A DNA stretch of 64,000 bases, taken from positions 32,302,001-32,366,000 of the forward strand of contig OZ076409.1 of assembly GCA_964187785.1 (NCBI GenBank), in the 5' to 3' direction. The notes beneath the pieces were generated by a model. The model saw only the letters and a program-made list of their open reading frames with translations, ran no database searches and had not been told where the DNA came from. Position 1 is the stretch's first letter. Each line of letters starts with the position of its first letter. The position numbers and the translations under genes were made by a program. The DNA comes from Amphiscolops sp. MND2022 (taxonomy: Eukaryota). Shown here piece by piece: positions 1 to 49,066 of this stretch.

Positions 1-935
1 CATTTCCGCCATGCGGGTGTCTGCCATGTTTTCTCTTTGCTTCATCAAGTCAATCAGAGAGGCGATGGATGCTTCCAACCGTCCTTGATTCTGGCGTCCT
101 TCGGCCTGTATTTCCAACAGGCCCCTTCGCATGTCATCCATATCCCTCATGATGACGTCAGCTCTCATTACATGTTCGGTGTTTTCTCTTGACAGTCGTG
201 AAATTACTTTTGAGAGTTGAGCCAGGCTGTTTCGGAAATCTTCTCTCACGGCTTGCGACTCTTTTATGATTTTCGTAACAGTTGAGTCCGGGGCCGTTTC
301 AGCGCTAGTTCTCGAGTTAGGCGTGTAGTTTTTTTTGCCAGTTCCTTTTGGAGCAAGATTTGAGTTTATTCATGGGGGTGTTCTAAAGACGTATCGCAAC
401 GGGTTGTCTTCCATTCGCGTTGATGGATTGTCGTTCGATTCAATAGGCACCGCTGATGGCTCTCCCTCTCGTGGGTAGCCGCTCAAAAAGGGATTTCTAG
501 TTCCGCTGTGCGGGGGGCCGCTACAGGAGTTGCATGGTTGCTACTTTGTGATGCCGTAGCTTCGGCTACACTTGTTTCGCGTTTTGGTTTTTTATTTGAG
601 TTTGGCCACTCCTCTAGACTGTAGTCAGTGACTTCGAGGGGTGGCCACGCATTATTTCGTGTGGTATTTTCGGTACCATCCACTGGATTGGTACTATCGG
701 GGGAAGCTTGCGACGAATCGAGCTGTTCGGCTGCATTTCTCATCTCCGTGTTTTGTTCTGCGTTGGGAATAAAGTCAGACATGAGTTCTGAAAATACATT
801 TGTAATGGTTGGTTCTTGGAGATTGTCAGCAAGAGTCTCCCATCGAGTAGTGTTTTCTATCATGCTACCAAATGGATTTGTAGCATGGAGGTTTTCGGGT
901 ACGTCCCAGTCCAATTTGGCCACGAGAAACGACAA
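1..935 (-). pseudogene. Gag N-terminal extension of the inverted copy (frameshifted by a ~47-bp deletion near 505)
   Basis: ORF 483-935 shares SDFIPNAEQNTEMR...ATPVAAPRT with ORF 6319-7341 and adds N-terminal residues missing from the main copy. Confidence 0.8.
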
Positions 936-3442
936 GTATTAAATGGGACCATTTCACTTGATTGGGACCGAGATTAACCAAAAGGCTTTTTACCAGCTTC
1001 GGTAATTGGGCTGGTGGAAATATACGTTCTAAGGTCAACTAAAATTTTCATCCCGGTCTCCGCTAAGTGGAGAGGATTAGGTTTACACTAAAACAAAATT
1101 TTTTTTGATTGATTGACTGTTTACGAGTTGCTGGCTAATCGGGTAGGCTGTGGAAGGGCCTATTGAGTTGAGGAGTGGTTGACTGGAATGAATAATGTTG
1201 GTCCAATTAGTTTTAGGGCTATGCGCTCATTCGACTAGTTGAACTTGTTTCTCACTAAGTTTTCTCGATTTATGGATTCAGGTACGGTAGGATGGATGGG
1301 ATTTGGGGGTGTGTATGGAAAAAAGACTCAATCGGAGGCGCAGAGGGTATTCTGTTTATGGAGGGGTTATTTTCAGGTCCGTATGGAGGTTGTTTGGGAC
1401 AGAAAGTGTGGAATTTTCCGTTCAATTTTCGTAAAATCAGTGAAATTGTCGTCGATTGGCACGTCTGGAAAGGGTGGAAAATGTTTCCAGGGCTCGTAGC
1501 GACGTGAAAATTTCACACCATATAGTACACTAGCTGAATCGTGGGAAGTTTAATGCCGACTGTACAGAAATTGACTCTATGGACGTTACGGTTATTTAAC
1601 AATGTTTATTGAAAATTTGATTATGTCGTAAAATTCGCAAAAAGTGGTCAAGTTCGCCTTCTAGGCGTCCCAGCCACCTAAAAATTTGCAGGCGAGCGTA
1701 ACTTGTGCCCACGTAACCGAACAAAACGGCGGCGAAGTGTCTGAATCAATATCCAGTGATCCGAAGTGACAAAACCTTGATATACCAGGGGTATCACTTT
1801 TTCGGGTAAAAACTCACAAAAATGCCAATTTCTCCGCTTTCGCTAGGAGCCGGCCACTCAAATTGCGCAAATCGTCGGGATCTAGTGACGTGCGTATTAA
1901 ACTGCAAGAATTTTAGTGCTGAGGTATCTGCAAGGTATTGCACTATGCTCAACTAAAATTTTATTTTTTCTACATTTTCGTACACTTTTTGAGCGAAACC
2001 GCGGCTATGATTTCTCAAGGACTAGCAGTTCTAGTGCAATGAAAATTACACCAGTAAGGTAACTTTTTGCGGTCCACACGATGGTGTAAAACGTTTTGAG
2101 CTGCTCCCACTGGGAGAGATTCCGACCTGCTCTTGGAACACTATACCAATATTCCGAAATTGTCACTAAAATCTCACGTTTTTGGCAATTTCTCGGCAAC
2201 CACTGGTTGGAATCGCTCGCGGTTTTCTGCACTTGCAACGTGAGGGTTTTTACTAACAAAAAATAAGCAAGCGAAACCTGGTAGGTTCCAAATTGGATTT
2301 CTCAAAAATTTTTTAAGTTGCACTTTTTACACTCTCGGAACAACACTGAAATAACGTGTTTTCGTCAAGAAATTTTTGTCTATCGGTTCTTGGATGTTCG
2401 AAATTGTTCCAATAGTATTGTAAGAAAGCGTGACAATTTATTTTATGGGGATGGGGTTCGTTCAATTATCATTTTTGATGTTATATCTCTCAGGTCTATG
2501 GGGTCCTCTACTCGGGTCTATGTGTATTGAAAGAAACAAGCAGTTAAAGTTTCAATTTCTATTGGGGAACCTTAGGAAACAACTTGGTAGTAGTGACTCG
2601 TACTACCAAGCTAGGGAGAAAGATTTTTGGGCGAATTCGGAAGCTTGGAAGTTAACGTCCAAAGCTTTGCCCTCGTCAAATTGGGTCAAATTAGCCAAAT
2701 TTGACGATTTTTTGACAAAAATCGCTGAATTTTTTGCTAGTTTGGAAAAATGGCCCGCAAAATTTTTTGTTCCTGACCCAGTGGGTCTATTGGAACGTTT
2801 TTCTAGTTTCCTCACTGGCCTTACTCTATTTGGCAGAATATTGGCTTTCAAAATTGGAAATTTCGGTCTTTGAGCTATAAATGGTGTTATTTTCAAGGTT
2901 TTCGAGCTCAAATTTTTTAACAACTGATCTGAATACCCTCTGGGTATTTTTGTCAGTTAGTTATTATGGGAATAGGCCTGGGAATATTCTTTTTGGGCCG
3001 TTAAAGTAAAAAATAGCCGATTTCACCCGTTTGACGTAGTATACAGCACTCACAGGGGCGTGGGAGGACCAGTCGTGTAGGACGTCACCACGTCATCACA
3101 GCTGGTGGGAACCTTCGGTGTCTGTCCTCTCTGTCCCCATACAGTGCAAATTAGCTGAAAATAAGCTAGAAAAACCTTTAAAACACGTTGCGGATAGGCC
3201 GGAATAGTTTTTTTATTAGGTTTTTGTAAGGTTAAAGGGGGTACACTGTTAGAAACTGTTAATGTCTCTCGATAGACATCAGAAATATGCGGAAAATGCA
3301 GGAACAATACTAGTACAAAGCCCAGACGGCTGGAAAAAGATTTAAAAAATAATCTAGGACCCTCCCCTGAGTTTTTTTTAGATCCGAACCTAACAGGGCC
3401 GGAAGGCAGAAGTTGCTCCTACTTGTACGCAAAATGAAAAAT

Positions 3443-3460
3443 ATCCCTCTGTGGTCGCCA
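3443..3460 (-). promoter_or_regulatory. Primer-binding site, tRNA-Arg-like (TGGCGACCACAGAGGGAT)
   Basis: Starts with TGG, lies 16 nt from the LTR end, and its complement ends ...GTGGTCGCCA as in metazoan tRNA-Arg(UCG) 3' ends (tRNA identity from recall). Confidence 0.7.
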
Positions 3461-3487
3461 TAAAAACTATTCCAGATGTAACGTCCG

Positions 3488-4579
3488 GCTGCGCTGGAAA
3501 TATTCTTAAATCTACACAGCAGAGAGAAGGAACGAGAAGACTCTGTTGGCGAAGACTATGCACGTGGAATCCAAATCTTCAAAAGTTTGTTTATGCAGTA
3601 TGGTCATCTAGAATTAGCCAACAACCTACCCGATTTCCCACAAGAAACCACCACCCACCAAAACAGCGCAACAAATGCGGCTGCCCCTGGCAGCTCACAG
3701 CAGACAACATCCAGTGGGTTACCCTCAGAAAGAACTGAAACCCAAATGGAGGAAGATCAGGAGAATCTACCCGTCGCCATAAAGCCCAACGATGAACCAA
3801 TGACTGACGATAATTTCACGTTATCCGACGGAGCAATCCCTGTCCGAGATGAACCCGACACGGGAATATCACAAATGGACGCCGCTGATATAGAGTCAGA
3901 GCTGAATAACTTGCTTACCATCGACGACTCCATGCAGTATCCTCCCTTAGTGACAGAATCGTCTACTAACCAGGAGTCAGCAATGACATCATCCGTTTCG
4001 AACTCACAACAGAGCCAGAATAATGAGTGAAAGAGCAGTAACCAATGCTGACCCGTCCACCAAAAGAAAACCAAACCCACTCTCAAACGAATACAACTTT
4101 ATCTTAATGGTTATAGACCATTTCATTTTAATTGGTGCTACGTACACTGAGTTCCTAAGCAATACTTGTTATGTGCTTAAAATTTTAGTTAAACTACACT
4201 ATGTGGGTGGGCCCTGAGCCAGTGCCCACCCTCTCCAATTTGGTAATTATCTACTACTACCAAGACCTGAATGTTGTTACTTGAGAAGTGCAAGGATACT
4301 TCCTAGAAAAGAGATTTTAACTTAAACCAGTGAAAACTGCATGAAACTTTTAAAATTGGCTGTCGTGATTCTAGTTTTGTCGAACAGTTTGAGTTATCGT
4401 AAAACTGACAAGTACTAAAACACCAGAAAGTGACGGGAAATTTGGAGGCTGACAGGAAACAAGTAAGAAAAAAGCCAAACCTTTCTTAGGTAATCAACAG
4501 ACTCTCAGCATTGCTGTTACCCTCTGGGTATGAGCATCCTCTCGTTTGCCGAGGATGACAAACTACGGCCCGGGGAGGT
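3488..4579 (+). mobile_element. 3' internal fragment of a second Gypsy copy (end of ORF3, 3' UTR, polypurine tract at 4572-4578)
   Basis: Direct repeat of 19547-20640. ORF 3587-4030 matches the ends of ORFs 19151-19798 and 19734-20084. Confidence 0.92.
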
Positions 4580-5298
4580 TGTAACGTCAGCCACTGGCAT
4601 CACAAAATTTCGATGAAAAATTCGAAATGTGCGATATCGAAATAGAAGAATCAAAATGGCCGACCTAGCAGGTACGAAAAGAATGAACAAAAAGAGAGAC
4701 CACGCGGAGAGCGAGCAAGAAACAGAGCACGTGTGAAAAAGTTGCACAAAAAGATGAAGAATTGCCAGAAGATGAAAAAACATCAGCAGAAAGATTATCG
4801 GAATGTTGTGCCATCTCCTTGGGAAATCAACAACATCTGCAGTCCACTGCCAGAGGCAAAATATGGATGGTGTACTGAAAACTGTAACGTAACTGAGGCC
4901 TATCCCCGTTTTTGTTTAATATTCCCCCTTTTTCCTCGAAATATTTGGATGATGAATGACCTTCTAGGTCTTTTTTAGATCTTATTCACCAAATACGATG
5001 TTTTCCAGCTAAATACTGTTTTGACCTCGGAAGTATGTAGGAACACGTAGGAACGTACTAGAAACCTTAGGATACGTTTTTACAGGCTTGTGGGGCGTGT
5101 CCGGACTTTGAGAGTGCCGGCGCGTCGCTTCGGAGCTCTAATTTGAGAAGCCTCCTTAGACGTCAGAAAAGTCCCCCTAGGAGACCATTTTGGGATCAAA
5201 AACTAGTGTCTAGGCATGTAGTAAGACAACAGTCTCCTGTTTAAGCATCCTAGGCATTGTCCCTCTTCCTAGATGTGCGTCGCTAGCCGGTCGTTACA
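4580..5298 (+). repeat. LTR (719 bp), shared between the upstream fragment and the main element
   Basis: TGTAACG...CGTTACA termini, preceded by a PPT and followed by a PBS; about 96% identical to 20641-21358 by hand count. Confidence 0.95.
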
Positions 5299-5314
5299 TC
5301 TGGAATAGTTTTTA

Positions 5315-5332
5315 TGGAGACCACAGAGGGAT
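5315..5332 (+). promoter_or_regulatory. Primer-binding site (TGGAGACCACAGAGGGAT), tRNA-Arg-like
   Basis: Same site as 3443-3460 with one substitution; 16 nt after the LTR. Confidence 0.7.
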
Positions 5333-6318
5333 ATTTTTCAATTTGCGTACAAGTAGGAGCAACTTCTGCCTTCCGGCCCTGTTAGGTCCGGATCTATGAA
5401 AAACTCAGGGAAGGATCCTAGATTATTTTTTAAATCTTTTTCCAGCCCTCTGGGCTTTGTACTAGTATTGTTCCTGCATTTTCCGCATATTTCTGAGATC
5501 TATCTAGAGAAATTAACAGTTTCTAACAGTGTACTCCCTTTAACCTTACCAAAACCTAACAAAAAAGCTATTCCGGCCTATCCGGAAGGTGTTTTAAAGG
5601 GTTTTCTAGCTTATTTTTAGCTAATTTTCAATGTATGGGGACAAAGAGGACGAACACCGAAGGTTCCCACCAGCTGTGATGACGTGGTGACGTCCTACAC
5701 GACTGCTCCTCCCACGCCCCTGTGATTGCTGTATACCACGTCAAACGGGTGAAATCGGCTATTTTCTTAATTTAACGGCCCAAAAAGAATATTCCCAGGC
5801 CTATTCCCATAATAACTAACTGAGAAAAATACCCAGAGGGTATTCAGATCAGTTGTTAAAAAATTTGAGCTCGAAAACCTTGAAAAGAACACCATTTATA
5901 GCTCAAATACCGAAATTTCCGATTTTGAAAGCCAATATTCTGCCAAATAGAGTAAGGCCAGTGGGAACACTAGAAAAACGTTCCAATAGACCCACTGGGT
6001 CAGGAACAAAAAATTTTGCGATGCCATTTTTCCAAAATAGCAAAAAAATCAGCGATTTTTGTTAAAAAATTGTCAAGTTTGGCCATTTTGACCCAATTTG
6101 ACGAAGGCAAAGCCTTGGACGTTAGCTTCCAAGCTTCCAAATCCGCCCAAAAATCTTTCTTCTAGCTTGGTAGTACGAGACACTACTACCAAGTTGTTTC
6201 CTAAGGTTCCCCAATAGAAATTGAAACTTTAACTACTTGTTTCTTTCAATACACATAGACCCGAGTAGAAGACCCCATAGACCTGAGAGATATAACATCA
6301 AAAATAATAATTGAACTC

Positions 6319-8830
6319 ATGTTTGACTTTATTCCCAACGCAGAACAAAACACGGAGATGAGAACCGCAGCCGAACAGCTCGACTTGTCGCAAGCTTCCC
6401 CCGATGGTACCAATCCAGTGGATGGTACCGAAAATACCATACGAAATAATGCGTGGCCACCCCTCAAAGTCACTGACTACAGTCTAGAGGAGTGGCCAAA
6501 CTCAAATCAAAAACCACCACGCGAAACAAGTGTAGCCGAAGATACGGCATCACAAAGTAGCAACCATGCAACTCCTGTAGCGGCCCCCCGCACCCCTTCC
6601 ATCAACAAGAACCCGCAGGTTTCTCTCGCATTAGGTACCAGCGGAACTAGAAATCCCTTTTTGAGCGACTACGCACGAGAGGGAGAGCCATCAGCGATGC
6701 CTATTGAATCGAACGACAATCCATCAACGCAAATGGAAGACAACCCGTTGCGATACGTCTTTAGAACACCCCCATCAATAAACTCAAATCTTGCTCCAAA
6801 AAGAACTGGCAAATCAAACTACAGGCCTAACTCGAGAACTAGCGCTGAAACGGCCCCGGACTCAACTGTTACGAAAATCACAAAAGAGTCGCAAGCCGTG
6901 AGAGAAGATTTCCGAAACAGCCTGGCTCAACTCTCAAAAGTACATTCACGACTGTCAAGAGAAAACACCGAACATGTAATGAGAGCTGACGTCATCATGA
7001 GGGATATGGATGACATGAGAAAGGGCCTGTTGGAAATACAGGCCGAAGGACGCGAGCATCAAGGAAGGTTGGAAGCATCCATGGCCTCTCTGAATGACTT
7101 GATGAAGCAAAGAGAAAACATGGCAGACACCCGCATGGCGGAAATGTCAGCCGTGATGAAAGAGCGAGATCGTCGTCAAGCTGACGAACGAATGAGAATG
7201 ATGTCAGAGTTCATGCAGCGCAGAGAAAATGACGCAAACACTCGAATGATAGACTTGATGACCACGATGAAAGACCTAACACTAGGAGTGAGAGCAATGA
7301 CGGCACAAACCGCAGCAGCCCAAACCAAAACCCTCCACTAGCGCGGCCCCACACCCAACGCAAGCTACCTACCGAAAAGTGGCACAGTCCAACATCGAAC
7401 AACCCAAACCCCTAAAATTGGTGCCGCCCGCAATCTACAAAAGAGATCAACCACGTACAAGCAAGATAGCAAGAGTGATCCGAGCAGAATCTTGCGATGT
7501 GGGTACGCACCCACTAACTAGCGTATCATTCGACCCCTTTGCTCGTGGTCCATCTACAACGGGAGATTACTATTCTCCTGCAAGCGGAATAACGACGAGA
7601 GAGTCAAACTACTACACCCCCAGAACCAAAACAAGTAGTGACCCTCCCAAACAGACGTACTTACACTTGGTCCCACGACCAGTGGCCACCAGTACGCAGT
7701 GAAAAATTACCGCTAAGCGAAATCTGGAACAAGACCAACAGGAGATGGAACAGCTTCCTGCAACGCCAAGCGCAACCCCAGACACCCCAAGAACGAGCCA
7801 ACGGCAAGCACTGGCTGAAGCCATTTCGACCGCGATGTCCAAGGGTCTGGAACCGCTGCTAGCGGCGAAAGAGTCGAAGAACAAACCGACGAAATATCGA
7901 GGAACCAAGGACGGCAACGCCGGCGGCTGGATGATGTTGATGAAGCGTCACTTGGAGAAGGCACATGCCAAAGCCAGTCCCCTCGACAGAGCCTGGACAA
8001 TCATTGAATATCTAGAAAACGAGGCCAGAGACTACATCACCAACAAATCCGAGGCAGAAAGAGACACCGACGAAAAAGTCTTTGCATTGCTAGCGCGGCG
8101 ATTTGGAACTGGGTCAAGTAAGATCCACATACAACAACAGTTCAGGACCCGCAACCAGAACAACGAGGAGTACTATATGCAATACCTCGATGCCCTCGAA
8201 GGTCTGCGTAGCCAAGGCTACCCCAACGAGGAAATGACTGTTCGCAGATACGAAATTATGCAAAAATTCATCGAAGGCGTTCGCAATTTCGAACTGAAAC
8301 GGAACCTAGCCCTCATGTACGCACAAGAAAAACACGTTGAAACACCACCGACAGTAGAAGCGCTTCGCTTCACAGTCCAGCAATACTTGCGCATGCGAGG
8401 TTCCAATCGTTCAGAAAATTATCAAATGGCTCAACCTCAACAACCACAACCCCCACCACCAAACCAACAACCAAAATTGCCCCCGGCAATTCCACCGCCA
8501 GTGCAACAACCTCAACAAGTGCCACCTCAACAGCAGGCACCCTTTAGACAACAACCCCAACGAGCATGCTTTATCTGTGGTGACCCATCACACTTTGTGA
8601 TCGACTGTCCACTGAAAGATCGCGCACGAAAACCAATGCAGCAACAACTGAATTCATGTCACACGAATCCATCCGGTGGATGGACTTGCCCATCGCAACC
8701 ACACGGGGTGAATAACGAAATGCACCCAGCATCTCTGCCAATCCAAGGAACCGTTGCCTTCTGCATCAATTGCGGATGCACTGAACATTCTGCATCAGAA
8801 TGTAGGGCCCCAGAACATCCCAGACAAGAA
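6319..8830 (+). pseudogene. gag: Gag: coiled-coil/low-complexity N-extension, capsid-like region, two CCHC zinc knuckles
   Basis: CFICGDPSHFVIDC and CINCGCTEHSASEC knuckles. ORFs 7379-7702 and 7745-9403 share a frame across one TGA; there is a frameshift near 7330. Confidence 0.88.
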
Positions 8831-8939
8831 CAACAAGTTAGGGAAGCATGGTATGCTCCGTATACCAACCAGTTAGATGGCGACCAACAAGATGATCAAG
8901 TAAAAGTAATCTCAGTTGCAGAGGCAGGAGGCCCGTCTC

Positions 8940-9330
8940 GCCCCATTATTGTTACTTGCGGCGAAAAACAAGTGCTTACCACATTAGAAGCACCCGCCCC
9001 TGATTGCACCGAGACACTCATCTCCATACACTTACTCCCCTCTGCCGAACAAAAATCGCGTCCCACATTAACGTTAGCGCAATTGAAAGAGGAACTGTGT
9101 AGAAAATCTAAATGCACAATCGCCGCTCGACCGTTACCGCACTTCACCCGCGACGACGAGACCAAGTTAGCGCCGATTCAAAAAGTGAAAACAATTTCTC
9201 CCGTCGCAGTAGCAATTAACGTAGATGGCGTAGATATTAAATTCGATGCCATTGTAGTCCTAGAAGGTTATTTCCCACAGGGACTATACCTGGGCCGCCA
9301 GGAGTTACGGTGTTACAACATTGGTATACA
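8940..9330 (+). pseudogene. Degenerate aspartic-protease-like domain lacking the catalytic Asp
   Basis: PIIVTCGEKQVLTTLEAPAPDCTETLIS ... VAVAINVDGVDIKFDAIVV ... LYLGRQEL follows the retropepsin pattern (ALLDTGA..S ... LLGRDFL) but has no DTG. Confidence 0.55.
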
Positions 9331-9399
9331 AGACACCCAGGGACACCCAGGGGGAAGCTCGCATCAACGAAAGAGCATCATTGAAGGTTGCCTTTGGCA

Positions 9400-9720
9400 A
9401 TGACCTGCAAGAACCCATTCCCTTATACGGTATGATCGACACGGGTTCAGGTGTCTCTATCCTCTCTATTGCCGCGTACCAAAAGATAGCATCCGCCCTT
9501 TCATTGAGTCTCCAGCCGTATGACATCCAGCTGTACGCAGCCAACGGCAAGACCATAACCACTGTCGGTATTGCTGAAGATGTGAACTTTCAATTGGGTG
9601 GCCACACACTGAAGACCAACTTCATAGTCATCACAGACCACTTAGGAGCTGAAGACTTCCTTCTAGGACGCAACTTTTTACGCACTTATAATGTCTTTGT
9701 GGACCTGACTGCAATGAGAG
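9400..9720 (+). pseudogene. Retropepsin aspartic protease
   Basis: MIDTGSGVSILS (D at 9438) and DFLLGRNFL. Confidence 0.92.
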
Positions 9721-10389
9721 TCATCATCCGAGATCCAAAATCTCCACGCCATTTTAAACCAGTCCTTGAGGTTAGTGACCATGAACCTTCTTTAGTAGTC
9801 TCTACCGAAATGGTTGTACTAGGACCTTTTGAACGTAAACTAGTTAGAGCACAAGTCATTACCCAGGACCCCAATGAATACCGTTTCCGCAATGTAATGA
9901 TACGCCCCAGTGGGGTGTACAACCGAAGTTCCTTTGTTTCAGAAGACACTTCAGTGGGAGAAGATGGCGCAGTGTACCTTGCCATAAGAAACAAAACAGC
10001 CTGTGAAAACTTACAGATTCCAAGTAAAACTGTCCTCGGCAAGGCAGAGCCAACCGTCTTTGTGTTCGAACCGGTCACAGTTGACCGAACAAATGGAACT
10101 TCCATGCCTCTTGTAGAACATGTTAATAATATTTGTACTTTTAATTTTAGTGATACAAGCAGTGAATTTAGTTCCTTCGCCCAAAAGTTTTTGTCATCCA
10201 CTGAGTTGTCAGAAGAGGAAGTGTCAGAAAATGAAAAACATGCACAAACCGATCCCTAACTGTTAAAATCAATACCAGGACCTGACCTATCCTCTGTCCT
10301 TTCTTTCTGGGGGGAGGGTGCAAGAGATCAGTTAGCAGAAGTTTTAAACCAGTACGACGACCTTTTTATGAAACATTAGGCCGACATAG

Positions 10390-11160
10390 GAAAATGTACG
10401 ATAGCAAAACATCGTATTGAGTTAGAACCGGAAGCTATCCCCCACAGGGAGGGCGCAAGACGAATGTCCCCCGACAAGGCTGCCAAAGCCAATCAAGAAG
10501 TAAGGAACCTCCTATCTTTAGGCTTATTTCAACCCTCCTACTCGCCATGGGCTAGTGGAATAGTATAGGTAAAGAAAAAGACAGGCGAACTCCGCTTCTG
10601 TTGCGACCTCCGACCACTAAATGACGTAACAGTAAAAAACGCCTTCCCCCTGCCCAGAAAAGACGAGAGTCTATCCAGGATTGGCAACGCAAAACTCTTT
10701 ACAAGCATCGATCTAGCGTGGGCCTTTTGGCAGATACCTCTGAAGAAACGCGACAGAAGGAAAACAGCATTTGCCTTCGAACTAGGTTTATTCGAATGGC
10801 GACGTATGCCCTTTGGGCTATGCAATGCATCCGCCACCTTCCAACGATCCATCACAAGAGCCTTACAAAAAATCCAACAAAGACATGGGAGTGTCGTCAT
10901 GGCCTACATCGACGACATAGAAATTGCAACCGAAACAATCGAAGACCACATCATGAGAATTAAAGAAGTATTCGAATGTCTCAGAGAGGCAGGCTTCAAA
11001 TGCGAGCGGAAAAATGCGACTTTATGCGCACGGAAACCAAATATCTAGGACGAATAGTGTCCGCTGGGGGAATACGGCCCGACCCAGAAGCAGTGACCAA
11101 AATCCAAGAGTGGTTACCTCCTAGGAACAAGGAAGAACTTCAAAGCTTCCTAGGATTTGC
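10390..11160 (+). pseudogene. Reverse transcriptase (Gypsy type)
   Basis: SPWASGIV, RFCCDLRPLN, PLPR, IDLAWAFWQIPL, MPFGLCNASATFQR and YIDD (10905-10916), with in-frame stops and frameshifts. Confidence 0.96.
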
Positions 11161-11299
11161 TAATTCCACGCCGCCAAGGTACAACCCATGCAAGAATTGT
11201 TGAAGAAAAATCAACACTTCTGTTGGGAGGAAAGACACCAAGAAGCCTTCGACTTGGTGAAACAAGCCTTATCCGACGCTACCACCCTAGCTGCACCGA

Positions 11300-11700
11300 A
11301 TGAGCAAGGACGGTTCGTGATAGACACAGATGCCAGTACAGTGGCAATCGCGGGTATTCTGCACCAAGAACAAGAATACAACGGCAAAACCATCCTGAGA
11401 TCGATCGTCTACGGTAGCAAATCACTGACCAAGACCCAATTAAACTACGGTGCCCCCAAATTGGAAATGTATGCAGTGTTTTACTTCGTAGAGAAATTCC
11501 ACTCATACCTAGCAGGTACAGAATTCACGCTTCGCGTAGATAATCAAGCCCTATCATGGCTTAAAACGTACTCCATGGACCAAGCCATGAGTGGTCGTTG
11601 AATCGCACGCCTAGACCAGTATCATTTCAAAACCATCCACAGACCGCGTACGCAACACCGAAACGTCGATGGACTTAGCAAGCGCACCAACGACTATATC
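11300..11700 (+). pseudogene. RNase H
   Basis: FVIDTDAS..AIAGILHQ, NYGAPKLEMYAV, RVDNQALSWL. Confidence 0.94.
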
Positions 11701-12379
11701 AATCGTGAACAAATCCTTGAAAAGCTACCAGAAGTAAGCGAAGGTTTCAATTTCATGTCACAGAAAGACTATGACGAACTTCCCACGTTCCCATACATCG
11801 ACAAGCGCGGTCACCTAATTCCAAATCATCCAGAACTTCCTCCGGAAGCCCGAGCCCGACTACCTCGACTGTACATTCTTCAGAAGAAGCAAAGGAACAA
11901 AAGTCCTGAAGAATCAACAGGAAGCACTCCTTGGTATCCTGAGATCCAGTGGGAAACCACACCGACTTTTGAGGAAGACGAACGACCGAACCGAATTTTG
12001 AGCATCACCACAAGAGTGCCCCCGGTACGAATAGACACAACCGAGCCAGACCCGACTCTAGGGGCACTTCCCGCCGAATGTCAGAAACAAGCTGATGTTC
12101 TAAGAACCATTGAAACGGAATTACACGAACACCACTTAACCAATTACGGTCTACGAGACCTACGCATGGCCCAAAGCAGAGACGTACACCTCTTGGCACT
12201 GAAGAAGCTCTTGAAGAACGAACCCCTAGAAGACTCAAGGTTCCCTGATGAAGTGCGTGACTTCGCCAAAAGGTACTATAACCAAAAGAAATCTACTCTT
12301 CTTAAATCCTGACGACATACTTTGCGTCAACTACGTCCCTCAACAACGTGCTTTGCACGTACGTCCGTGCATGATCGTC

Positions 12380-13430
12380 ATGCCACAACTCTTCCAACAC
12401 GAAATCCTGTACCGAGCGCACGATGAGTCAGGACATCAAGGCGTAGGAAAAGTGCTAGCAAGGATACAAGAACGACATACTTGGCCGGGAATCAAAAGAG
12501 ACGTAGTGAATCACATCAAACAATGTTTGACCTGCCAGCAAGCAAAACACCCAGCAGGAAATCCTTGCTACCCCCTGCAGGGCATAAACAGTAGCAACTT
12601 CAATGATCTGGTTCAATTTGAACACTTGAAACTCTGCAAAACTGATTCAGGCAACACCGGCCTCTTAGTAATAATAGATCACTTTACCAAATTCGCAGAA
12701 GCTGTCCCATGCGCCCACGACGAATATGACGCGCAAACCACAGCAAGAATCATCCTGAACAAATGGTTTGCCAGACATGGCACTCCTGCAAGAATGCAAT
12801 CCGACAACGCAACAAACTTTACAGCTGAATTAGCCCGAGAACTCATGAACGCTTCCCAAGTTACTAAAGTTACTTCAACACCGTCACACCCCAGAGGTAG
12901 TGGACTCGTAGAGCGACAGAACAGAACACTACTCACCTTACTTCGAGTCTACACGTCGCGCAGGATGCAGGACTGGGACGAACATATCGACGGAGTCCTT
13001 GGCGCATACAACTCTACTCGACACGCCACCACGGGATTTTCACCATACATGCTCCAACATGGCGCAGAAAAATCCATCCCATTATCGTTCATATACCCAT
13101 AATTCGCAGCACGAGGCTTTGACTCCAAAGAAGAATTTGTAGAACACTTATTGGCCAGACAACAAGAAATCCATGAATTAGTCCGACGAAACACACATCA
13201 AGCTCAGCTTCGACAAAAGCTAAAATTCGACCGCCACCTGAAATCAAAAGCGCACGCCGTCGGCGACGCTGTCTGGGTGTTCTGTCACATAATACCCAAA
13301 GGTAGCACTCGCAAGCTCATACGGGCGTGGCGCGGACCCCACAAAGTTACGGACGTACTACAAGACGGACTCCTCTATGTACTAGACACGGGTCAAAAAG
13401 TTCACTATGAGAGACTAAAGAAACACGTAA
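12380..13430 (+). pseudogene. Integrase (HHCC, DDE, GPY/F)
   Basis: HDESGH...CLTC zinc motif, IIDHFTK, QSDNATNF, GLVERQNRTL and WRGPHKV. The first catalytic D reads E (VQFEH). Confidence 0.95.
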
Positions 13431-13567
13431 CAGCCCACTGGGACTGGACTACTCACCAACCTTTCGGACCGGATCAAAACATAGCCATCATAGCTGATCC
13501 ATACGTGGAAGAAAGCAACGAAAAACTTGCCTCGGATATCTCCAGAGACTCCTTCCTACCAGAATAA

Positions 13568-15248
13568 CTCCCAGAAGCATCGTTCGAATTGGAACCCACA
13601 AGGCCGACTCCCCCTCGTATCATCCAAACGCGTACTCAAACTGCCCTAGAGCAAGGAATCCCACGCAGGAGATTCAGCCAATTCGGATACCCATCCAAAT
13701 CAGAATCAGAAGCGGAAGCAGCTGCACCGCCACCCATGAACTCTCCCTGCCAGGTAGTATTTCCCGAACTCGATGACTTGGAACCGTTATTCTCCAATCA
13801 GGAGGAAATACAACCACCAACACTCGTCGAAAGCTTGATACCATCCCCCTCTGGGACCTCAGCTCCACTGCTGTCTAACCCTTCGCTCACAAACACCTTG
13901 AGCAGTTTCCCTCTATTCTACCCACAAACAAGTGACCCCAATCAATCTGCTCCCCCAGCTCCAACGGCTGACCCACAAGAACTCGATGTCGACCTTGACA
14001 ACCAGATCGCAAATCAAAATCCACCACCTAGAACCTCCAACAGGAGAGGTCGACCAAGGCGTAGGCCTCCTAGTCGCCGGAACCAGCTACCCACATCTTC
14101 AAGCGGAACCACTACGTCCTCTAGAAGACCAATCACACGACTTAGAAGAGGCCCAAGGACTAGATTTTCCACTAGAGCCCCGCCCAGAATACATGACAGA
14201 GCAATGACTCTCCCGGAAATTCCTGAGAGCCAATCCCTACCCAACCGAACACACTGGATGATGCTTCCAGGCGAGCGCCACGCTATCAACTCCGAGCTAA
14301 CAGAGCGCCCAGATATAGATGCGGAACCTGTGGTTCCCGTAACTGTAGTTGCATCCAACTAGTTACTGCGGAACTCCCGAATATACAATTGACCCGGGGA
14401 GAAGCAATTCCGGCTCGCTAACTCACGCTAGCACGAGCGCACAACCACCCTCAACACGAAATCTTAACTGTACGAGCGGAACAACAGAAACACAAAACCC
14501 AACCAACCATCCGACATATAATTCTGACCATCAAGAAGACTTATGCCAGCACTGAATCTGGACTTGTACCACCTCTAGAAACCACGCTGAAAGAAATGCA
14601 CAAGTTCTCTCCTTCTAATTGTCCAACATATCGCTTCAAGGAATGGACAAGCCATGAAAAAGGTGGACTTGAATTCACATTGGCAGCAACCATTCCCCCT
14701 CTACCACCCTCATTCTGGTTCGGTGAACTAGATAACACATGCAGCAACCCCCTGATGATTCGCTGCATTACTGCAAACCAGCTATGGAACAAATACCACA
14801 TCGCTTCCCCTCCGGGTGACGTATATCAACCATCCGCAGGATGGTGGCTCCTGGTCACCTCCCTCGATGATTCCTCAATGGTCTCACCTACTACGTTGTT
14901 ACTATGCCTAGAGAACTTACGCACTCTCGTGGAGACAAACGACACCCTATGTTCTCATCTAGCCGACATATATCGCAGAAAATCATATTCTGCCGACAAA
15001 CGAAAATTTGCATACTCGACCGATTAACATACACTCCCCCCGACACGCCCATGTCCACCCTAGAAGCACTCTCCATCATGCACAGTTGGCCGTGCATGCA
15101 CATGGGCAACCGTCCTTTGCATCGCACTATATGGGAGGATCGCAGAGCGACTTTTGGACACTTGACATCGAAACCCTTAGATAATCATGAAGAGGACACT
15201 GGGAAATGGCTCATATCGCAACCAACAATTCGCCCAAACCATGTGCCA
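13568..15248 (+). pseudogene. Pro/Ser/Arg-rich tail and unknown domain continuing Pol after integrase
   Basis: ORF 13589-14362 is in frame with integrase across single stops and is followed by ORFs 14596-15027 and 14904-15470. Confidence 0.6.
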
Positions 15249-15699
15249 TGGATTACTTACTCTGATAGGGACATTCTACAAGCCTCCGGCACATTAGTGT
15301 TGTGTTGTCCCGCCGACCTACAACCCCAATCGGCAACTTTTCGATACATCGTTCGCGAATATGGACAGAAAGCCATATTCCGCTTAAAACCTTCAGTTGG
15401 CACTGCCATTTGCTTGAAACACTACCACATTGCACCTTGGAACAATCAAATCTTCCAGAGCCTCCAATAAACACCCACTCCTGCACGAAACTCTACACAC
15501 ATGCCTCACTCACCTCCAACACCAGCTTCATCAAAACGAAATCTCCCAAATCCACATACCCATCTATGACCCCGAACGATCGATCAACCTCATACCAACT
15601 TGGTACACCACGCTCCGAGATCACTTTTTTCGGGTCAAACCTGGAAATAATACTCCACGACAGAGTCTACGTTTCGATCGCATCATTTTCTTCTATTGA
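15249..15699 (+). pseudogene. Macrodomain, TARG1/OARD1 (Poa1p)-like, frameshifted near 15460
   Basis: ITYSDRDILQASGTLVLCCPADL...REYGQKAIFRLKPSVGTAICL...NQIF / RASNKHPLLHETLHTCLTHLQHQLHQNEISQIHIP parallels OARD1 (ITYVKGDLF..SLAHCISED...KKFGG...GEVAVL...IYYLITK..SHKPTYENLQKSL..M...LSMP), recalled from memory. Confidence 0.68.
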
Positions 15700-16069
15700 T
15701 ATCAATGCTAATTGAGTTATCTTGAACGCAGGCCAGCGGCCCGCCCTCCTTGTTTCTCCTGTCTACTTCCCCACTTACCCTTTTTATTCTCCCAATACGC
15801 GCGAGTTGATCCATAAACTTTTAATGACAGCGTTCTATACAACTGCAATCTTTCTTGACAGCCACTCCTTTCTTTTTTAACTTTCATACCTTTAAGTTCC
15901 TTTCTGAATTCCCTTAGCGTATTTCATACACCTTCTTTATGTTCATGTATAACTTGTTTTTCAGTTTTGTTCTGTTGCTTCGCCCTTGCGCAGCTACCCC
16001 AGATTGCACCATCACTCATTTTCTCCTATATTATCATATTCCTCATCCGTGCTATCGAACTCACCTGCC

Positions 16070-16687
16070 ATGGACCCCTCATCACGTAACCGCATGCCTG
16101 CACCCAGCAATCAGCAATCTCCCCAACAACGTGCTACTTCTTCCAGCACTCTTCCGTCGGTGGGCGAGGTTAATGGTCGAATGGACCAGCTAGCCTTAGT
16201 CCAACAAGCTTTGCAAGATGGGGCCACCCCCAGCATGATCGCTGGCTTTGCCATGATCGTTGCTCAAATGCAAGCGCAAGCAGCGCACCCAGAGGTCCTA
16301 TTGACCATTACTAGCAGTATCGGGCCGCTTGAGCGTTCCGCTACTTTCCGTGATGGCATTTGGCATGGTTATGATCATAATTTATTCGATCACTGCTCCC
16401 ACATGCTTTACGGAGAACCTAATAGGCCTCCAATGGATCAAGAACGGTCATTCAGAACCTCTCCCCCTACGATTCAACCTTTATTCCAAGCACCGCAGCC
16501 TACACCAATACAAACTGTGATTCAACTCCCCCCTTCCGAAACCACAACTTTCAGCTGCACCCTACCCTTGGTACCACCTCCAATCCTAACACCACCTATG
16601 CCTCTGGCATCTGTGGGCGTCCGCTCGCTTACACAATCCACTTCAAGCTTCATAATTCTTTCCATTTTTCAGGGGGGAGAGGTGTAA
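16070..16687 (+). CDS. Pro/Gln/Ser-rich ORF of unknown function (possibly the N-terminus of ORF3)
   Basis: Open frame 15986-16687 with ATG at 16070 (MDPSSR...). Confidence 0.4.
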   Translation: MDPSSRNRMPAPSNQQSPQQRATSSSTLPSVGEVNGRMDQLALVQQALQDGATPSMIAGFAMIVAQMQAQAAHPEVLLTITSSIGPLERSATFRDGIWHGYDHNLFDHCSHMLYGEPNRPPMDQERSFRTSPPTIQPLFQAPQPTPIQTVIQLPPSETTTFSCTLPLVPPPILTPPMPLASVGVRSLTQSTSSFIILSIFQGGEV

Positions 16688-16767
16688 GTGAGCCCTACTG
16701 AATCCAACCAAACAACAACGCAAGAGCAAGCCAAAGAACAGTCTCTTTTCAAAATTCCCATGAAGAA

Positions 16768-19700
16768 TTGACACCCTCCACATCTAACACCAAACCCTCC
16801 CGAAATGAACCCAGCAAGCTGATAGGCTTCCAAAAGGACCCTAAACTACAAGAGCGCCAAAGAGAAGAGCAGCGGGAAGAAAGAAAAAGCAACAACGCTC
16901 CCATAGACCTTCGCGATAAATTAAACGCAGCGAAAAGAGCTAGAGAACAAGACGAGCAAACTAGCTCAAGATCAAACAGGGGAGTACCAGCCCCATCCCC
17001 CAGCCAACCGGAAGCCAGAAGACAAAAAGTAGCCAGAGAGCTGCTCACTGCAACTGAAATAAAACAACTAGACATAGCGGCGAGAGACGCAGTGCGTCTC
17101 CAACGCGAAGTACCGAGTATACCCGATGAAGAAAATCCCCCAAAACAAAAGTTTGCGAGCGCTAACAGCAAAGGGGACTATAGAGAGGGCCAAAATTGGA
17201 GAAGTCTACACCAGGCCAGTCAAGCCACCGGTATTCACTAATGATGGAGGAGTCCCACCATGGTTCGAACGTCTCAGGAGGGGTTTGCGGAACAGTAACT
17301 CTACGTACCTCCAACCATCACAACCATTGACTGAGCAACTCACTCGTCAGAGACCTGGGAGATTTGGGGAGAATCACTTACAATCGAAGAACTACGCGAG
17401 GGACCCCATCACCCTGCTGCCAATGGGAAAATTTATTGCAAAAGACAAAAATCGCTCTCTTTGTTGACTCGACCATCAAATCTTCATACAACTCAAATAA
17501 TACTCTGGTGGATGTTAGATGATGAATATGCCCTGCACCACGCTCAGCGAGATGACGGAGGTGACCGACAAATTATTCACGCCAGCGGCGGCAGAAACCA
17601 TACCTCTTCCACCAATCCTAGTGTATTCAAATGTGATCGACCACCTCGCCCTGCGAGGATCATTGCGATATTTCGACATGCAAAGCACTCGATACACAGA
17701 AGGATTCATCACAGACGAAGTTGTGGCATACGTGGAAACGATGTCTAACATTGCCACAACGATGAAGAACAAGACGCCAAATACGGGAACCGTGTTTGTC
17801 TCACCCCCTGGGTATATGCATCTCCCAAAAGCATTGCAACAATTTTTGTATTTGGTGCTAAATCCAGCCTTCTTAGCAGAAGTATCTAAAGCTGTTCAAG
17901 GGTTTACAGGAAACCGAGGGAATTCGCAACTCTTGGTAGACGAGGCGACGGCATACGACTATGAGATGCAAATGTCGATCAGGTCTTTAGACGAGAATGG
18001 GATACGCAAGGTAAATGACCCCAATGAGAACGAGCGGAAGCACCTGGTGGATAACCTCTGGTACGAACGAAGAGACGAATCCACCCTCGATGATAAAACC
18101 CACGATCCGAAATTTCATAAAGAGCTGCTAGCCCTTTTCAAAGAAACAGAGATGATCAAGGCAGAGCGAACCAACACTACTGTATTCCCCATAGCAGCGA
18201 TAGCAATAGACGCTAAGCTCGAGATGGCATCACTCTCCTTGACGCTCCTAGTAGTGATGACACGAGACCTGGCAAAACAAAATGAAATAGAACCCGGGCA
18301 CACATATCAAACCTGGCACCAAGCCTTGCGTGAAACCCTAAATCAAGTCGCCCTGATTCCATTCCATTCCCTGTACTCTTGTACAACATTTCCCCATTCT
18401 GGCTCCCTAGTTTCGTCCAGGCCGAATTCAATCTCGACGACCAGCAAGTGCGCCTATACGTGGAACCGATGCAGAAAGCCACCATAAGTGAAATTTTGGC
18501 GTATCTAATGGCTTGATGCTTGTCGGCATGAACGCAGTCTATAAAGGACCCTCAGGTGTTCTCCAGAAACTAATCTTTGACAAAGGAAACTTGTCGTTTT
18601 TCAGTTACCTGGTGTATGCTCAGAATCAGAAAAGTTCGCTGCAAGCGATTTTATGCGCCTTGGGCCCAGCGGGTCCCCTACAACTGAAGAAACAACTAGA
18701 ACTCAATATCGAAGCTATCCTCACCTGGATCTACTCAACCTGGGTCAACGTTGCGGGTATATCGCATCCTCTGGATGAAAACCCTGCTATCAACAGAGAA
18801 CCCAATCAACTTCCTGGCTTCTTCTTTCCCTCACAAAATGCCACTCTCATGTTGGTGGAGACGGAAGACCTAATGCCTCTAATCTCTCCCATATTCTGGC
18901 CGATCTTCGGTGCAGTCATGGCACTCAGATATCCAACACAAGTCCTACGTATGGCGGCAAACTCCCCCACCTTGTCCATATTACACTTCGTAACGACAGA
19001 TGGACTCCAGCCGGATCCCACCTACCACAGAGTGGTAGCCAGCTTTACATCTCTGCGACCGCCCATGGCCTACACGACTATTAAAGACAAGAAGCAAGTT
19101 GAGCACAACTTACCTCCATCATAAAGGCACGTGCGCGATCCGCCCTCCCAATGCCAATGGAGTTCCATCCAATTGCATGGCTACATAACCCTCTGAACCT
19201 CAGTACTGGCGCGGAGGACTCCTTTACGGATTGGAATGCCGAAGTAATTTTGAGGGTTATAGCTACCACAGTTCGGAGACTGGGCGGCAGAAAGCGAGGA
19301 GAAGAACCCAGCGAATTACGATACCCTTATGTATGCGACACATCACGAATGTATAGTGACCGAACTAGTCCCCGCGCACACTCAGCTCGCATACTAGACA
19401 TGACAACATGCTGGTCAAAACCAGACATAGTGGATCTCGCAATACACCAGATGTCGTTGCGCATGAAAGCCAAGACGCCCTCGGTGGCCAAAGAACCGAA
19501 CAGAAAAGCTTTGCCAATCAGTACAATCGTCCCCAAAAATTCGCGCGCTGCGCTGGAAATATTCTTAAATCTACACAGCAGACAGAAGGAACGAGGAGAC
19601 TCTGTTGGCGAAGACTATGCTCGTGGAATCCAAATCTTCGAAAGTTTGTTTATGCAGTATGGTCATATAGAATTAGCCAACAACCTACCCGATTTCCCAC

Positions 19701-20084
19701 AGGAAACCACCACCCACCAAAACAGCGCAACAAATGCGGCTGCCCCTGGCAGCTCACAGCAGACAACATCCAAAGGTGTTACCCTCAGAAAGAGCTGAGA
19801 CTCAAATGGAGGAAGATCAGGAGAATCTACCCGTCGCCATAAAGCCCAACGATGAACCAATGACTGACGATAATTTCACGTTATCCGACGGAGCAACCCC
19901 TGTCCGAGATGAACCCGAGACGGGAATATCACAAATGGACGCTGATATAGAGTCAGAGCTGAATATTTTGCTCACCATTGACGACTCCATGCAGTATCCT
20001 CCCTTAGTGACGGAATCGTCTACTAACCAGGAGTCAGCAATAACATCATCCGTTTCGGACTCGCAACAGAGCCAGAATGTTTGA
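16768..20084 (+). pseudogene. Extra ORF3 in env position, fragmented, with an SGNH-hydrolase-like domain at ~17448-17880
   Basis: Six overlapping + strand ORFs tile the region. KIALFVDS / VRMMNMPCTT / PPILVYSNVIDHL / TVFVSPPGY map to SGNH blocks I-III and the following strand. Confidence 0.6.
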
Positions 20085-20632
20085 GTGAAAGAGCAGTAAC
20101 CAATGCTGACCCGTCCACCAAATGAAAGCCAAACTCACTCTCAAACGAATTCAACTTTATCTTAATGGTTATAGACCATTTCATTTTAGTTGGTGATACG
20201 TACACTGAGTTCCTAAGCAATACTTGTTATGTGCTTAAAATTTTAGTTAAACTACACTATGTGGGTGGGCCCTGAGCCAGTGCCCACCCTCTCCAATTTG
20301 GTAATTAACTACTACTACTACTAAGACCTGAATGTTGTTACTTGAGAAGTGCAAGGATACTTCCTAGAAAAGAGATTTTAACTTAAACCAGTGAAAACTG
20401 CAAGAAATTTTTAAAAATGCCTGTCGTGATTCTAGTTTTGTCGAACATTTTGAGTTATCGTAAAACTGACAAGTACTGATACACCAGAAAGTGACGGGAA
20501 ATTTGGAGGTTGACAGGAAACAAGTAAGAAAAAAGCGAAACCTTTCTTAGGTAATCAACAGACTCTCAGCATTGCTGTTACCCTCTGGGTATGAGCATCC
20601 TCTCGTTTGCCGAGGACAACAAACTACGGCCC

Positions 20633-20640
20633 GGGGAGGA
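20633..20640 (+). promoter_or_regulatory. Polypurine tract
   Basis: GGGGAGGA immediately before the 3' LTR. Confidence 0.8.
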
Positions 20641-21358
20641 TGTAACGTCAGCCACTGGCATGACAAAATTTCGATGAAAATTTCGAAATGTGCGATATCG
20701 AAATAGAAGAATCAAAATGGCCGTTCTAGCAGGTACGAAAAGAATGAACAAAAAGAGAGACCACCCGGAAAGCAAGCAAGAAACAGAGCACGTGTGAAAA
20801 AGTTGCAGAAAAAGATGAAGAATTGCCAGAAGATGAAGAAACATCAGCAGAAAGATTATCGGAGTGTTGTGCCATCTCCTTGGGAAATCGACAACATCTG
20901 CAGAGCATTGCCAGAGGCAAAATATGGATGATGGATTGAAAACTGTAACGTAACTGGGGCCTATCCCCGTTTTTCTTTAATATTCCCCCTTTTTCCTTGG
21001 AGTATTTGGATGATGTATGACCTTCTAGGTCTTTTAAGATCTTATTCACCAAATACGATGTTTTCCAGCTAAACACTGTTTTGACCTCGGAAGTATGTAG
21101 GAGCTCGTAGGAACGTACTAGAAACCTTAGGATACGTTTTTACAGGCTTGTGGGGCGTGTCCGGACTTTGAGAGTGCCGGCGCGTCGCTTCGGAGCTCTA
21201 ATTTGAGAAGCCTCCTTAGACGTCAGAAATGTCCCCCTAGGAGACCATTTTGGGATCAAAAACTAGTGTCTAGGCATGTAGTAAGACAACGGTCTCCTGT
21301 TTAAGCATCCTAGGCATTGTCCCTCTTCCTAGATGTGCGTCGCTAGCCGGTCGTTACA
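20641..21358 (+). repeat. 3' LTR (718 bp)
   Basis: TGTAACG...CGTTACA; homology with 4580-5298 ends here. Confidence 0.95.
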
Positions 21359-22826
21359 TCCATTCGCTAGCCAGTAAAATCGAAATTTGCCTTGACCCTC
21401 GAATTTTAAATATTTGGAAATTGTAGTGTAGTGACTGTCATGGCCTAACCAGTTTTTGGAATGTCATGTCAATTGATCCAAGAATGCATTATACGTTAAG
21501 TTGGACCCGAATAATTGTCCTGCTTAGGAAACTTGGGATTAACATTCTTTCTAAAACAATGTTCCTCCAAACTGATCGGGCACAGGTACTGCGAAGATTT
21601 TTATACAGCTCCTGGTATATTTAGTTTCAATCAAATGTTAATTTCACTCCGATAGTTTTTTCCGGGACTCTTGTATCCTGAGGAAGCATCTACGCATTGC
21701 AAACTTTGTGGATCTTTTCTGGGATGGGTGAAATTTTGAACGACCATATTTTGGTTTGTTATTTCACAAGAAGTGGTATTGTTGAAGGTTCACTCCCAGG
21801 GCTTGGAGAATTGACGATAAGTTTGATCCACTGTATGAGACGATTCCGCGGTGTCGTAACGTCAATATGCCTTTGTAATAGTGCAATTTTAGCATTTTTC
21901 AAAATCATCTGCCCGGGATCAAAACACCAACGAAAGATGAACTTATCATTCTTGGTTCACCGCTCGGCCCAAAATCGCAGGCAGACTTATTGGGAAAGAA
22001 AATTAATGAACTGGGAAAAGTTAATGGAATTGTTGAAAAACTGGAAGCTCATTATGGTTTTTCATGTTGGAAAATTGTTTCAGTCTACCAAAGTTCTACT
22101 TCTTGAGAACCAGTATATGTTTCGATTATCCAGCTCTCTTGGAAAAGTATGACAAAACCGTACCCGACGGGCTTTCCACAGTGTGTAACGTGAACTTCGA
22201 CGATATTTCGAGTACTCAGCTGGCTCTGCGCGCTGAAAGGGTGGTCTTGGAGTTTCATCCGCATGATTATTAGCACTTCCCACCTTTTTGGCCTCAGCTT
22301 TTGGTGCGGGACAGGAAAGTCCTCCCGATGGAACCTAGAAAAATTGGACCCAACTTGTCTCCGTCGAATTTGCCCAAGATTTGATTTCTAGAATGGATGA
22401 CAAACGTTCGAAAGTTTTTATTGCTCATCAAGGCAAATTCGGGTCTCAGTGGCTAAAAGTTGTTCCTTGCAAGAACCTAGGCCTAAAACTTGATGATCTG
22501 CAGCTTCGGATTACGATTGGTTTACGTCTCATATCCAACATCTGTTGTAAAAGAGTTGAACGGAACGGTTTACACGGTCTTTCTTGCACCAAGAGTGGTG
22601 GTCGCTTCTCACGTCATGCCACTCTCAATTCTCTCATAAAGCAGATGTTGGGATCTCTCGACTTGCCTTCAGTGCTCGAACCGCGTGGACTGTACCGAAC
22701 TGATGGCAAACGCTTGGACGGTGTTAGCATGATTCCTTGCGAAATAGGTAAACAGCTGATGTGGGATGTCACGGTTGAGGAAGCTCTTGCACCCAGCCGT
22801 CTGAATCAAGACTTTTTATGCAACCC

Positions 22827-25298: not shown

Positions 25299-25651
25299 TA
25301 TGCAACCCGGGAACCACCGCCACCGAGGCTGAAGCGCGTGAAATTGAGAAGTATCGCGAATTAATAGACAATGGATACATTTTCAACCCGTGGCCTTGGA
25401 AGTACAGGGTTCTTTAGGCGAGAGCAGTGAAATTTTCATCACGCGTCTCTGTGAAATGCTCTGTGGTTCGTACGAGGATCAACGAGTTGGCAGCTTTTTG
25501 AAGCAACGGATTTTAATGGCTCTTCAGATCGGCAATGCGGCCTGTTTTCTAGGAACTGTGAGCTACAGAGATGCGTTCGAAGAAGTTTATTACATAGCTA
25601 TTTTTTTAAACCTCTATCATTGCATCTTTAACAGAAAATTCTACCGGTCGA

Positions 25652-49019: not shown

Positions 49020-49066
49020 GAAGCTTAAAAACTTTTTTTTTGATTAATACTACAAGTGTGTTTAAG

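Follow-up and report, generated by a model that had tools for sequence, protein, structure and literature searches.

Several retroelements with long terminal repeats (LTRs) described from animals and plants share features with the element analysed here, a Ty3/Gypsy retrotransposon at positions 4580-21358 of a 64,000-nucleotide stretch of DNA (the window) from Amphiscolops sp. MND2022 (assembly GCA_964187785.1, contig OZ076409.1, positions 32,302,001 to 32,366,000 of the forward strand). The bdelloid rotifer elements Vesta, Juno and TelKA likewise have a dUTPase between protease and reverse transcriptase (RT), as well as a non-env third open reading frame (ORF3) that may be a GDSL/SGNH esterase. 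However, in the available text on them that esterase is a compact enzyme with S-G-N-H intact, whereas here the comparable segment makes up ~200 of ~1,400 amino acids (aa) and is seemingly inactive (PMC5408684). The same text contains 'macro' 0 times and reports no duplicated protease, whereas the present element has a macrodomain and a probable dead protease. Planarian Burro/GYPSM1 is also giant, with one huge Gag-Pol bearing added domains and a dUTPase-like segment between protease and RT, but it exceeds 30 kb and its 4,873-aa ORF1 carries MATH, BIR, BCL2, ankyrin and an in-frame env, with no macrodomain or SGNH domain reported in the available part of the source (PMC6431247). None of MATH, BIR, BCL2, ankyrin or an in-frame env appeared in Pfam scans of four intact polyproteins related to the present element. 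Plant Ogre elements are Gypsy elements of 16-25 kb with extra ORFs of unknown function, but they owe their size to LTRs of 1.9-6.5 kb, as against LTRs of 0.72 kb and an internal region of 15.3-17 kb here; the available part of that source places the threshold for 'giant' at an internal sequence of 20 kb (PMC6431247). Chromoviruses, according to the accessible portion of a preprint (bioRxiv 10.1101/2021.11.30.470311), have a reader-type domain C-terminal to integrase, but theirs is a chromodomain, whereas here the fold is that of a macrodomain and Pfam gives no chromo match. Finally, fish endogenous retroviruses have captured macrodomains, but these viruses belong to the Retroviridae and, in the available text, carry them as additional ORFs, whereas here the macrodomain is fused to Gypsy Pol (PMC4977317).

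A dUTPase, a GDSL ORF3, macrodomains and giant size are each known in retroelements, but their combination was not found in the literature searched (acoel genomes included; Repbase, GyDB and supplements left aside), which yielded neither a Gypsy element whose Pol is fused to a macrodomain nor one with the second gene described below; the available part of PMC9911081 holds no element descriptions. An earlier note, made from the letters of the window alone, had called the combination one it did not recognise. That stands for this literature, but since a dUTPase together with a GDSL ORF3 has been published for bdelloids (PMC5408684) and larger Gypsy elements are known (PMC6431247), as the available texts show, the novelty is lower than that note implied.

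Positions 4580-21358 are a decayed and unusually large copy of a Ty3/Gypsy LTR retrotransposon. Its LTRs align with 690 matches, 29 substitutions and 1 gap (96.0% identity), with 7-bp terminal inverted repeats and TG...CA ends. Of the 21 ORFs of the element scanned with Pfam between them, four give matches, which stand in the order aspartic protease, RT, RNase H, integrase, and Ty3 Gag-Pol is the best of 49 PDB sequences for an intact homologue (1.6e-101, against 1e-46 for the next non-Ty3 entry). The giant Gypsy lineage proposed by the earlier note is supported. As that note also had it, the end of integrase lies near 13,430, 7.2 kb ahead of the right LTR at 20641; a Pfam scan of the post-integrase ORFs of the window gave no match above any cut-off. 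I propose that the best explanation of the locus, the mechanism discussed below included, is an autonomous two-gene Ty3/Gypsy family of high copy number (probability about 0.65). The two-gene layout taken by itself is very probable from the sequence comparisons: a ~3,100-aa ORF1, in the order Gag, (dead protease), protease, dUTPase-like segment, RT, RNase H, integrase, linker, Cys motif and macrodomain(s), and a ~1,400-aa non-env ORF2, both under selection (Table 1).

Table 1. Positions of the element's features and of the adjoining copies in the window.
Feature	Position	Strand	Remarks
Inverted second copy, 5' region (last ~14 bp of LTR, leader, Gag start)	1..3490	-	continues past the left end of the window
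Preceding tandem copy, 3' end (ORF2 tail, 3' untranslated region, polypurine tract)	3488..4579	+	96.1% to 19547-20640
Left LTR	4580..5298	+	719 bp; common to two tandem copies
Candidate primer-binding site	5315..5331	+	16 nt from LTR; by sequence inspection
ORF1 Gag region	6292..8900	+	long low-complexity/coiled N-terminus, capsid-like part (PNMA, below cut-off), zinc-knuckle-like Cys/His motif
Probable catalytically dead protease duplicate	8936..9340	+	boundaries approximate; ahead of live protease
Aspartic protease, DTG motif	9414..9745	+	PF13975 6.6e-07
dUTPase-like fold, degenerate catalytic motifs	9780..10070	+	boundaries approximate; between protease and RT
Reverse transcriptase and RNase H	10570..11600	+	PF00078 5e-29, PF17919 1e-26
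Integrase (H2C2, core, C-terminal part)	12383..13430	+	PF17921, PF00665; 76% to P0027
Pro/Ser/Arg-rich linker	13430..14360	+	in frame with integrase in relatives; four-cysteine motif at end (~14314-14352)
First, degenerate macrodomain (probable)	14728..15030	+	boundaries approximate; pLDDT 65-82 over most
TARG1/DarG-class macrodomain, ORF1 C-terminus	15240..15694	+	structure comparison of predicted model
Pyrimidine-rich spacer	15716..16069	+	354 bp; C+T 243/354 (69%)
ORF2	16070..20045	+	one gene in intact relatives; here split by several frame changes and stops
SGNH/GDSL-like alpha/beta domain, probably inactive	17430..17950	+	~200 aa inside ORF2; boundaries approximate
Conserved ORF2 region, predicted mostly helical	18300..19750	+	~500 residues; conserved to 26% identity; model pLDDT <50
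Polypurine tract	20628..20640	+	found before both LTRs
Right LTR	20641..21358	+	718 bp

Relatives of ORF1 were sought with the window's first macro-like region as query among 314 candidate proteins of 1,735-5,523 aa, of which 57 matched, with integrase in all 57 and RT in 56; all come from ENA records and were compared as protein sequences. The longest of them (2,998-3,114 aa) tile the window from 6292 to 15,694. By comparison with these intact relatives, ORF1 encodes a single Gag-Pol, up to 3,114 aa long, which runs past integrase to ~15,694, in agreement with the single frame that the earlier note had read from Gag through the post-integrase tail. The copy in the window shows nine frame changes and seven in-frame stops against the intact homologue P0027, and the start of its ORF1 was lost to a deletion at ~6313. 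The relatives fall into two lineages ~48-51% identical, one of 54 proteins (~75% identical to the window in Pol) and one of 3 proteins, and a single relative, P0078, represents 1,094 sequences. Such a very high copy number might mean that a family with this architecture is already described in Repbase, GyDB, Dfam or a genome supplement. However, the matches carry no family name and the literature searched gave no description, and I consider an existing description unlikely. OARD1-like macrodomains have also been annotated in invertebrate Gypsy polyproteins, which would fit such a description. Between RNase H and integrase (11600-12300) lie ~230 aa without a Pfam match, the integrase-proximal end of which is conserved in both lineages.

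The earlier note listed a dead protease and a dUTPase-like segment together with the macrodomain and the SGNH-like ORF; the first two lie before RT and are not part of the cargo that follows integrase. A dUTPase-like fold between protease and RT is supported by profile comparison (HH), in which the segment scores 28.8 over 89 columns against a profile of eight dUTPases (null 14.4±2.4, 0 of 60 shuffles, probability 37%, P 3.5e-4) and is the best of 19 polyprotein windows. The consensus catalytic motifs of dUTPase are not kept in the aligned columns, and a Pfam scan of the intact relatives gave no dUTPase match. The segment ahead of the protease aligns with the C-terminal half of the protease only (HH P=0.003 over 39 columns, best of 12 segments, 0 of 60 shuffles), and DTG is absent from it in the window and in all five relatives examined. 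That it is a dead protease duplicate, as the earlier note proposed, is plausible but weakly supported.

Behind integrase, the linker leads to a motif whose four cysteines are invariant in nine of nine rows and then to the C-terminus of ORF1. An AlphaFold2 model of the last 492 aa of P0027 has a mean predicted local distance difference test (pLDDT) score of 51, mostly 60-90 in two blocks. The last of these matches TARG1 by Foldseek (5.9e-09, TM 0.79) and by VIA (Z 16.1, root-mean-square deviation (rmsd) 4.6, 144 aligned) and DarG by VIA (Z 15.2), at an identity of just 14-18%, and it is complete in 53 of the 57 relatives. On this predicted structure ORF1 ends in a macrodomain of the TARG1/DarG class, as the earlier note had surmised. 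Neither the macro models of Pfam, NCBIfam and PHROGs nor PDB sequence searches gave a match to the macro region, and the best ESM Atlas value for it is 0.88, with one cluster that is 15% Macro at 0.87 serving as a lead only. The first block resembles macro-like aminopeptidase domains (Z~6), and the two blocks as a pair align with PARP14 macro1+2 (Z 10.1, rmsd 12.6, 251 aligned); the HH match of the two blocks' profiles to each other was beaten or equalled in 2 of 60 shuffles and is non-significant.

Given that the closest folds are TARG1 and DarG and that many RNA-virus macrodomains also match, the domain could be an active TARG1/DarG-like eraser of ADP-ribose on the cDNA, RNA or proteins of the element, a counter-defence like that of viral macrodomains. 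TARG1 does reverse ADP-ribosylation of DNA and RNA ends, according to the available parts of two sources (PMC11088682, PMC4695847). Nonetheless, the low identity to TARG1 and DarG and the lack of any sequence match to macro models speak against an eraser. So do the residues themselves, as the glycine-rich loops and the catalytic Lys of TARG1 appear by eye to be replaced in five of five rows, and the phosphate-binding residues appear replaced as well. An active eraser is thus quite improbable, and a macrodomain that binds its target is the preferred reading.

The earlier note saw the region between integrase and the right LTR as a gap tiled by coding remnants. It is coding, but it resolves into two units, the tail of ORF1 and a single ORF2. 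A search with 17519-18484 as query among 4,475 candidate proteins of 565-2,000 aa gave 23 matches, four of which are 1,277-1,429 aa long and stand for 51-342 sequences each. Because these four intact relatives tile 16,070-20,045 collinearly (39-68% identity), the many ORFs of the window in this interval belong to a single gene. With a profile search, 407 representatives were recovered at E<=0.001; identity to P0009 goes down to 26% among the best 150. No assigning match to ORF2 was found in Pfam, PHROGs, NCBIfam, PADLOC or PDB sequences, nor any family or PDB match to its mostly helical region, and the best ESM Atlas match to a piece of ORF2 (0.88) is a hypothetical protein. Designed PPR repeats, which came up as PDB relatives of the ORF2 profiles, were rejected, as their score was summed over repeats and is an artefact. 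A small N-terminal domain of ORF2 (16070-16440) is conserved and detectable even in the distant P0232 (26%, E 3e-11).

All four intact ORF2s are devoid of a signal-peptide-like start, a furin motif and a Cys-rich ectodomain (7-8 Cys), their hydrophobic peaks are 1-2 in number and marginal, and Pfam gives no env family match. By these features the ~1,400-aa ORF2 protein occupies the position of env but is not an env, and the cargo is indeed non-env, as the earlier note held. One could still suppose that ORF2 stands in for env and moves the particles of a virus-like element between cells, its esterase fold acting on membranes, an idea raised for GDSL ORFs in the available text of PMC6431247. Its env position, the pyrimidine-rich spacer upstream of it and one conserved hydrophobic segment (peak 1.95-2.22 in four of four intact ORF2s) would all fit. 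Against this stand the missing env features and an esterase that is likely inactive, and I judge an env substitute very improbable. The spacer is possibly a splice-acceptor region, which would be compatible with a subgenomic ORF2 RNA for the non-env protein preferred here.

The first 180 residues of an AlphaFold2 model of 802 aa of ORF2 form an alpha/beta unit. Among the best 50 matches to the model, 17 align at least 115 residues there, and 13 of these 17 are GDSL/SGNH-type esterases at Z 4.5-5.4, where the tool's noise guide is 8; seven are so classed by title and six by what I take to be their family membership. In a register set by eye from the usual SGNH motifs, 20 of 23 rows retain the Ser and the N/D is kept, the position of the block-V His is Arg in 29 of 32 rows, and the conserved residues stand in SGNH-like order. 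Foldseek with the 802-aa model gave nothing at E<=0.001, and an HH profile comparison with eight bacterial SGNH proteins (1 of 60 shuffles in local mode, 10 of 60 in global mode) aligned off the motif register. The predicted fold suggests that the segment is probably SGNH-like and, if it is, the apparent replacement of the His makes it likely that it is inactive. The SGNH-like ORF of the earlier note is thereby kept, with weak support, as an enrichment of GDSL folds, but it shrinks from a whole ORF to part of ORF2.

That this cargo belongs to the element is indicated by ORF2 adjoining the polypurine tract and LTR in two copies within the window, and by P0019, in which ORF2 follows directly on the same RT (81%). 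Since ORF1 and ORF2 are both open in diverged relatives, both were very probably under selection as parts of the element. In favour of a nested insertion or passenger host DNA of this copy alone, one can cite how few proteins from elsewhere link ORF1 directly to ORF2 (one, P0019, among 185 ORF2-family proteins). However, 57 relatives have the macro region in the same frame as Pol, which largely refutes an insertion for the ORF1 tail, and ORF2 abuts the polypurine tract twice, the G+C content of the cargo is the same as that of Pol, no internal repeats flank the cargo in a self-comparison of the window, and intact ORF2 members number in the hundreds. A nested insertion is extremely unlikely, and the earlier note was right to treat the cargo as part of the family.

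Several points nevertheless weigh against the two-gene family as drawn here. The single ORF1-ORF2 link outside the window is one of them. Another is that pN/pS for pairs of copies in the window is 0.43 (9 synonymous, 14 non-synonymous) and 1.9 (4 and 27), with no clear signal of selection. The ORF1 search was restricted to long proteins that match the tail, and it is blind to relatives without it. The 802-aa model of ORF2 is poor overall (pLDDT 32.8), the SGNH assignment has no significant sequence support in Pfam, PDB or profile comparison, and the first macrodomain is uncertain, a second macrodomain in ORF1 being probable on the model.

As a whole, the mechanism proposed for this family is tentative. 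The element would be copied by the ordinary tRNA-primed LTR route, which is established for Ty3/Gypsy. Captured enzyme folds that have lost catalysis might serve as binding modules, and the macrodomain pair, whether it remains on integrase or is cut from it, might read ADP-ribosylated or nucleic-acid targets and so steer or shield the integration complex. I prefer this reader role because the macrodomain sits where chromoviruses have their targeting chromodomain. ORF2 would be made from a separate RNA, spliced or internally started, and might act as an intracellular accessory protein, its esterase-like fold aiding particle assembly or membrane-linked transport, as the available text of PMC5408684 proposes for retroelement esterases.

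A more ambitious reading, and a rather unlikely one, is that of an old, very successful and as yet undescribed Gypsy lineage in which an integrase-fused tandem macrodomain that reads host ADP-ribosylation replaced the chromodomain strategy, and in which a new ~1,400-aa family (a pseudo-esterase plus a ~500-aa domain) replaced env. If true, it would be the first direct link of LTR retrotransposon integration or defence evasion to ADP-ribose signalling, and ORF2 would be a new class of retroelement protein. Whether integrase-linked macrodomains bind ADP-ribose or remove it would help to decide if hosts use PARP signalling as a defence against LTR retrotransposons or if it gives these elements a targeting cue. 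The element also adds one with a different payload to the few giant Gypsy elements of animals. In it, four captured folds (protease duplicate, dUTPase, macrodomain and esterase-like) were apparently retained after loss of catalysis, and its ORF2 represents a large protein family whose hundreds of members are unannotated.

In the self-comparison, three blocks of the window are related to one another. The 1,092 bp ahead of the left LTR (3488-4579) match the 1,094 bp ahead of the right LTR (19547-20640) at 96%, and the ORF2 tail of this preceding copy stays in one frame where the main copy shifts frame. Since the left LTR is flanked by a copy of the internal 3' end, it is the middle LTR that two tandem copies have in common and shows no readable target-site duplication, the outer end lying beyond the window. 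The inverted copy (blastn, 94% to 5285-6316 and 91% to 6313-7146) contains at 785-2459 a 1,675-bp block that is missing from the main copy at ~6313, with 4-bp microhomology at the bounds. Residues 45-143 of the intact Gag of P0027 align with window positions 893-594, and the last ~100 bp of the block are in frame with residues 45-73, so that the main copy has lost at least part of the block by deletion. For the remaining ~1.5 kb, which are taken as leader, the inverted copy is the sole witness. The 1,675-bp deletion of the earlier note can be upheld to this extent, and its length of ~18.4 kb is recovered as a sum of 18,454 bp that includes the block of the neighbouring inverted copy, but physically the element spans 16,779 bp. 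That note had missed the tandem and inverted context, as it had the single ORF2 and the probable second macrodomain.

At the junction (~3477-3490) a minus-strand LTR end (~14 bp) meets the plus-strand 3' internal region with a 3-bp overlap, which suggests either that part of a tandem dimer was inverted or that the junction arose in a manner resembling autointegration. The simplest reading would be a tandem LTR-A-LTR-B-LTR with most of A inverted, which predicts that the rest of A lies to the left of the window; the 4-5% divergence between copies counts against a plain assembly duplication. The gap of 16 nt between the LTR end and the candidate primer-binding site (5299-5314) is identical in both copies and unusually long, the usual distance being a few bases. 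The site may resemble the 3' end of tRNA-Arg. Rfam (window 1-22000) and ARAGORN gave no match.

Elsewhere in the window, a decayed non-LTR retrotransposon at 22779-25077 consists of a zinc-knuckle ORF (PF00098), an AP endonuclease (PF14529) and then RT-proximal remnants; around it are what look to be fragments of a different element (22339-22866 and 25348-25776). Positions 32379-37141 hold about 2.5 imperfect units of ~1.8-2.2 kb in tandem, which are 88-95% alike and in which no ORF family was identified. A cluster of diverged ~170-280 bp repeats (70-82% alike) lies at 38310-40167. A minus-strand ORF at 43521-44429 resembles by eye the C-terminal part of a non-LTR RT, with no Pfam match, and several long low-complexity ORFs on the plus strand at 47469-54894, also with no Pfam match, look like exons of a host gene. 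Finally, 57946-62702 holds Polinton/Maverick-like remnants, namely a piece of protein-primed DNA polymerase B (PF03175, E 0.0036, below cut-off) and nearby minus-strand ORFs.

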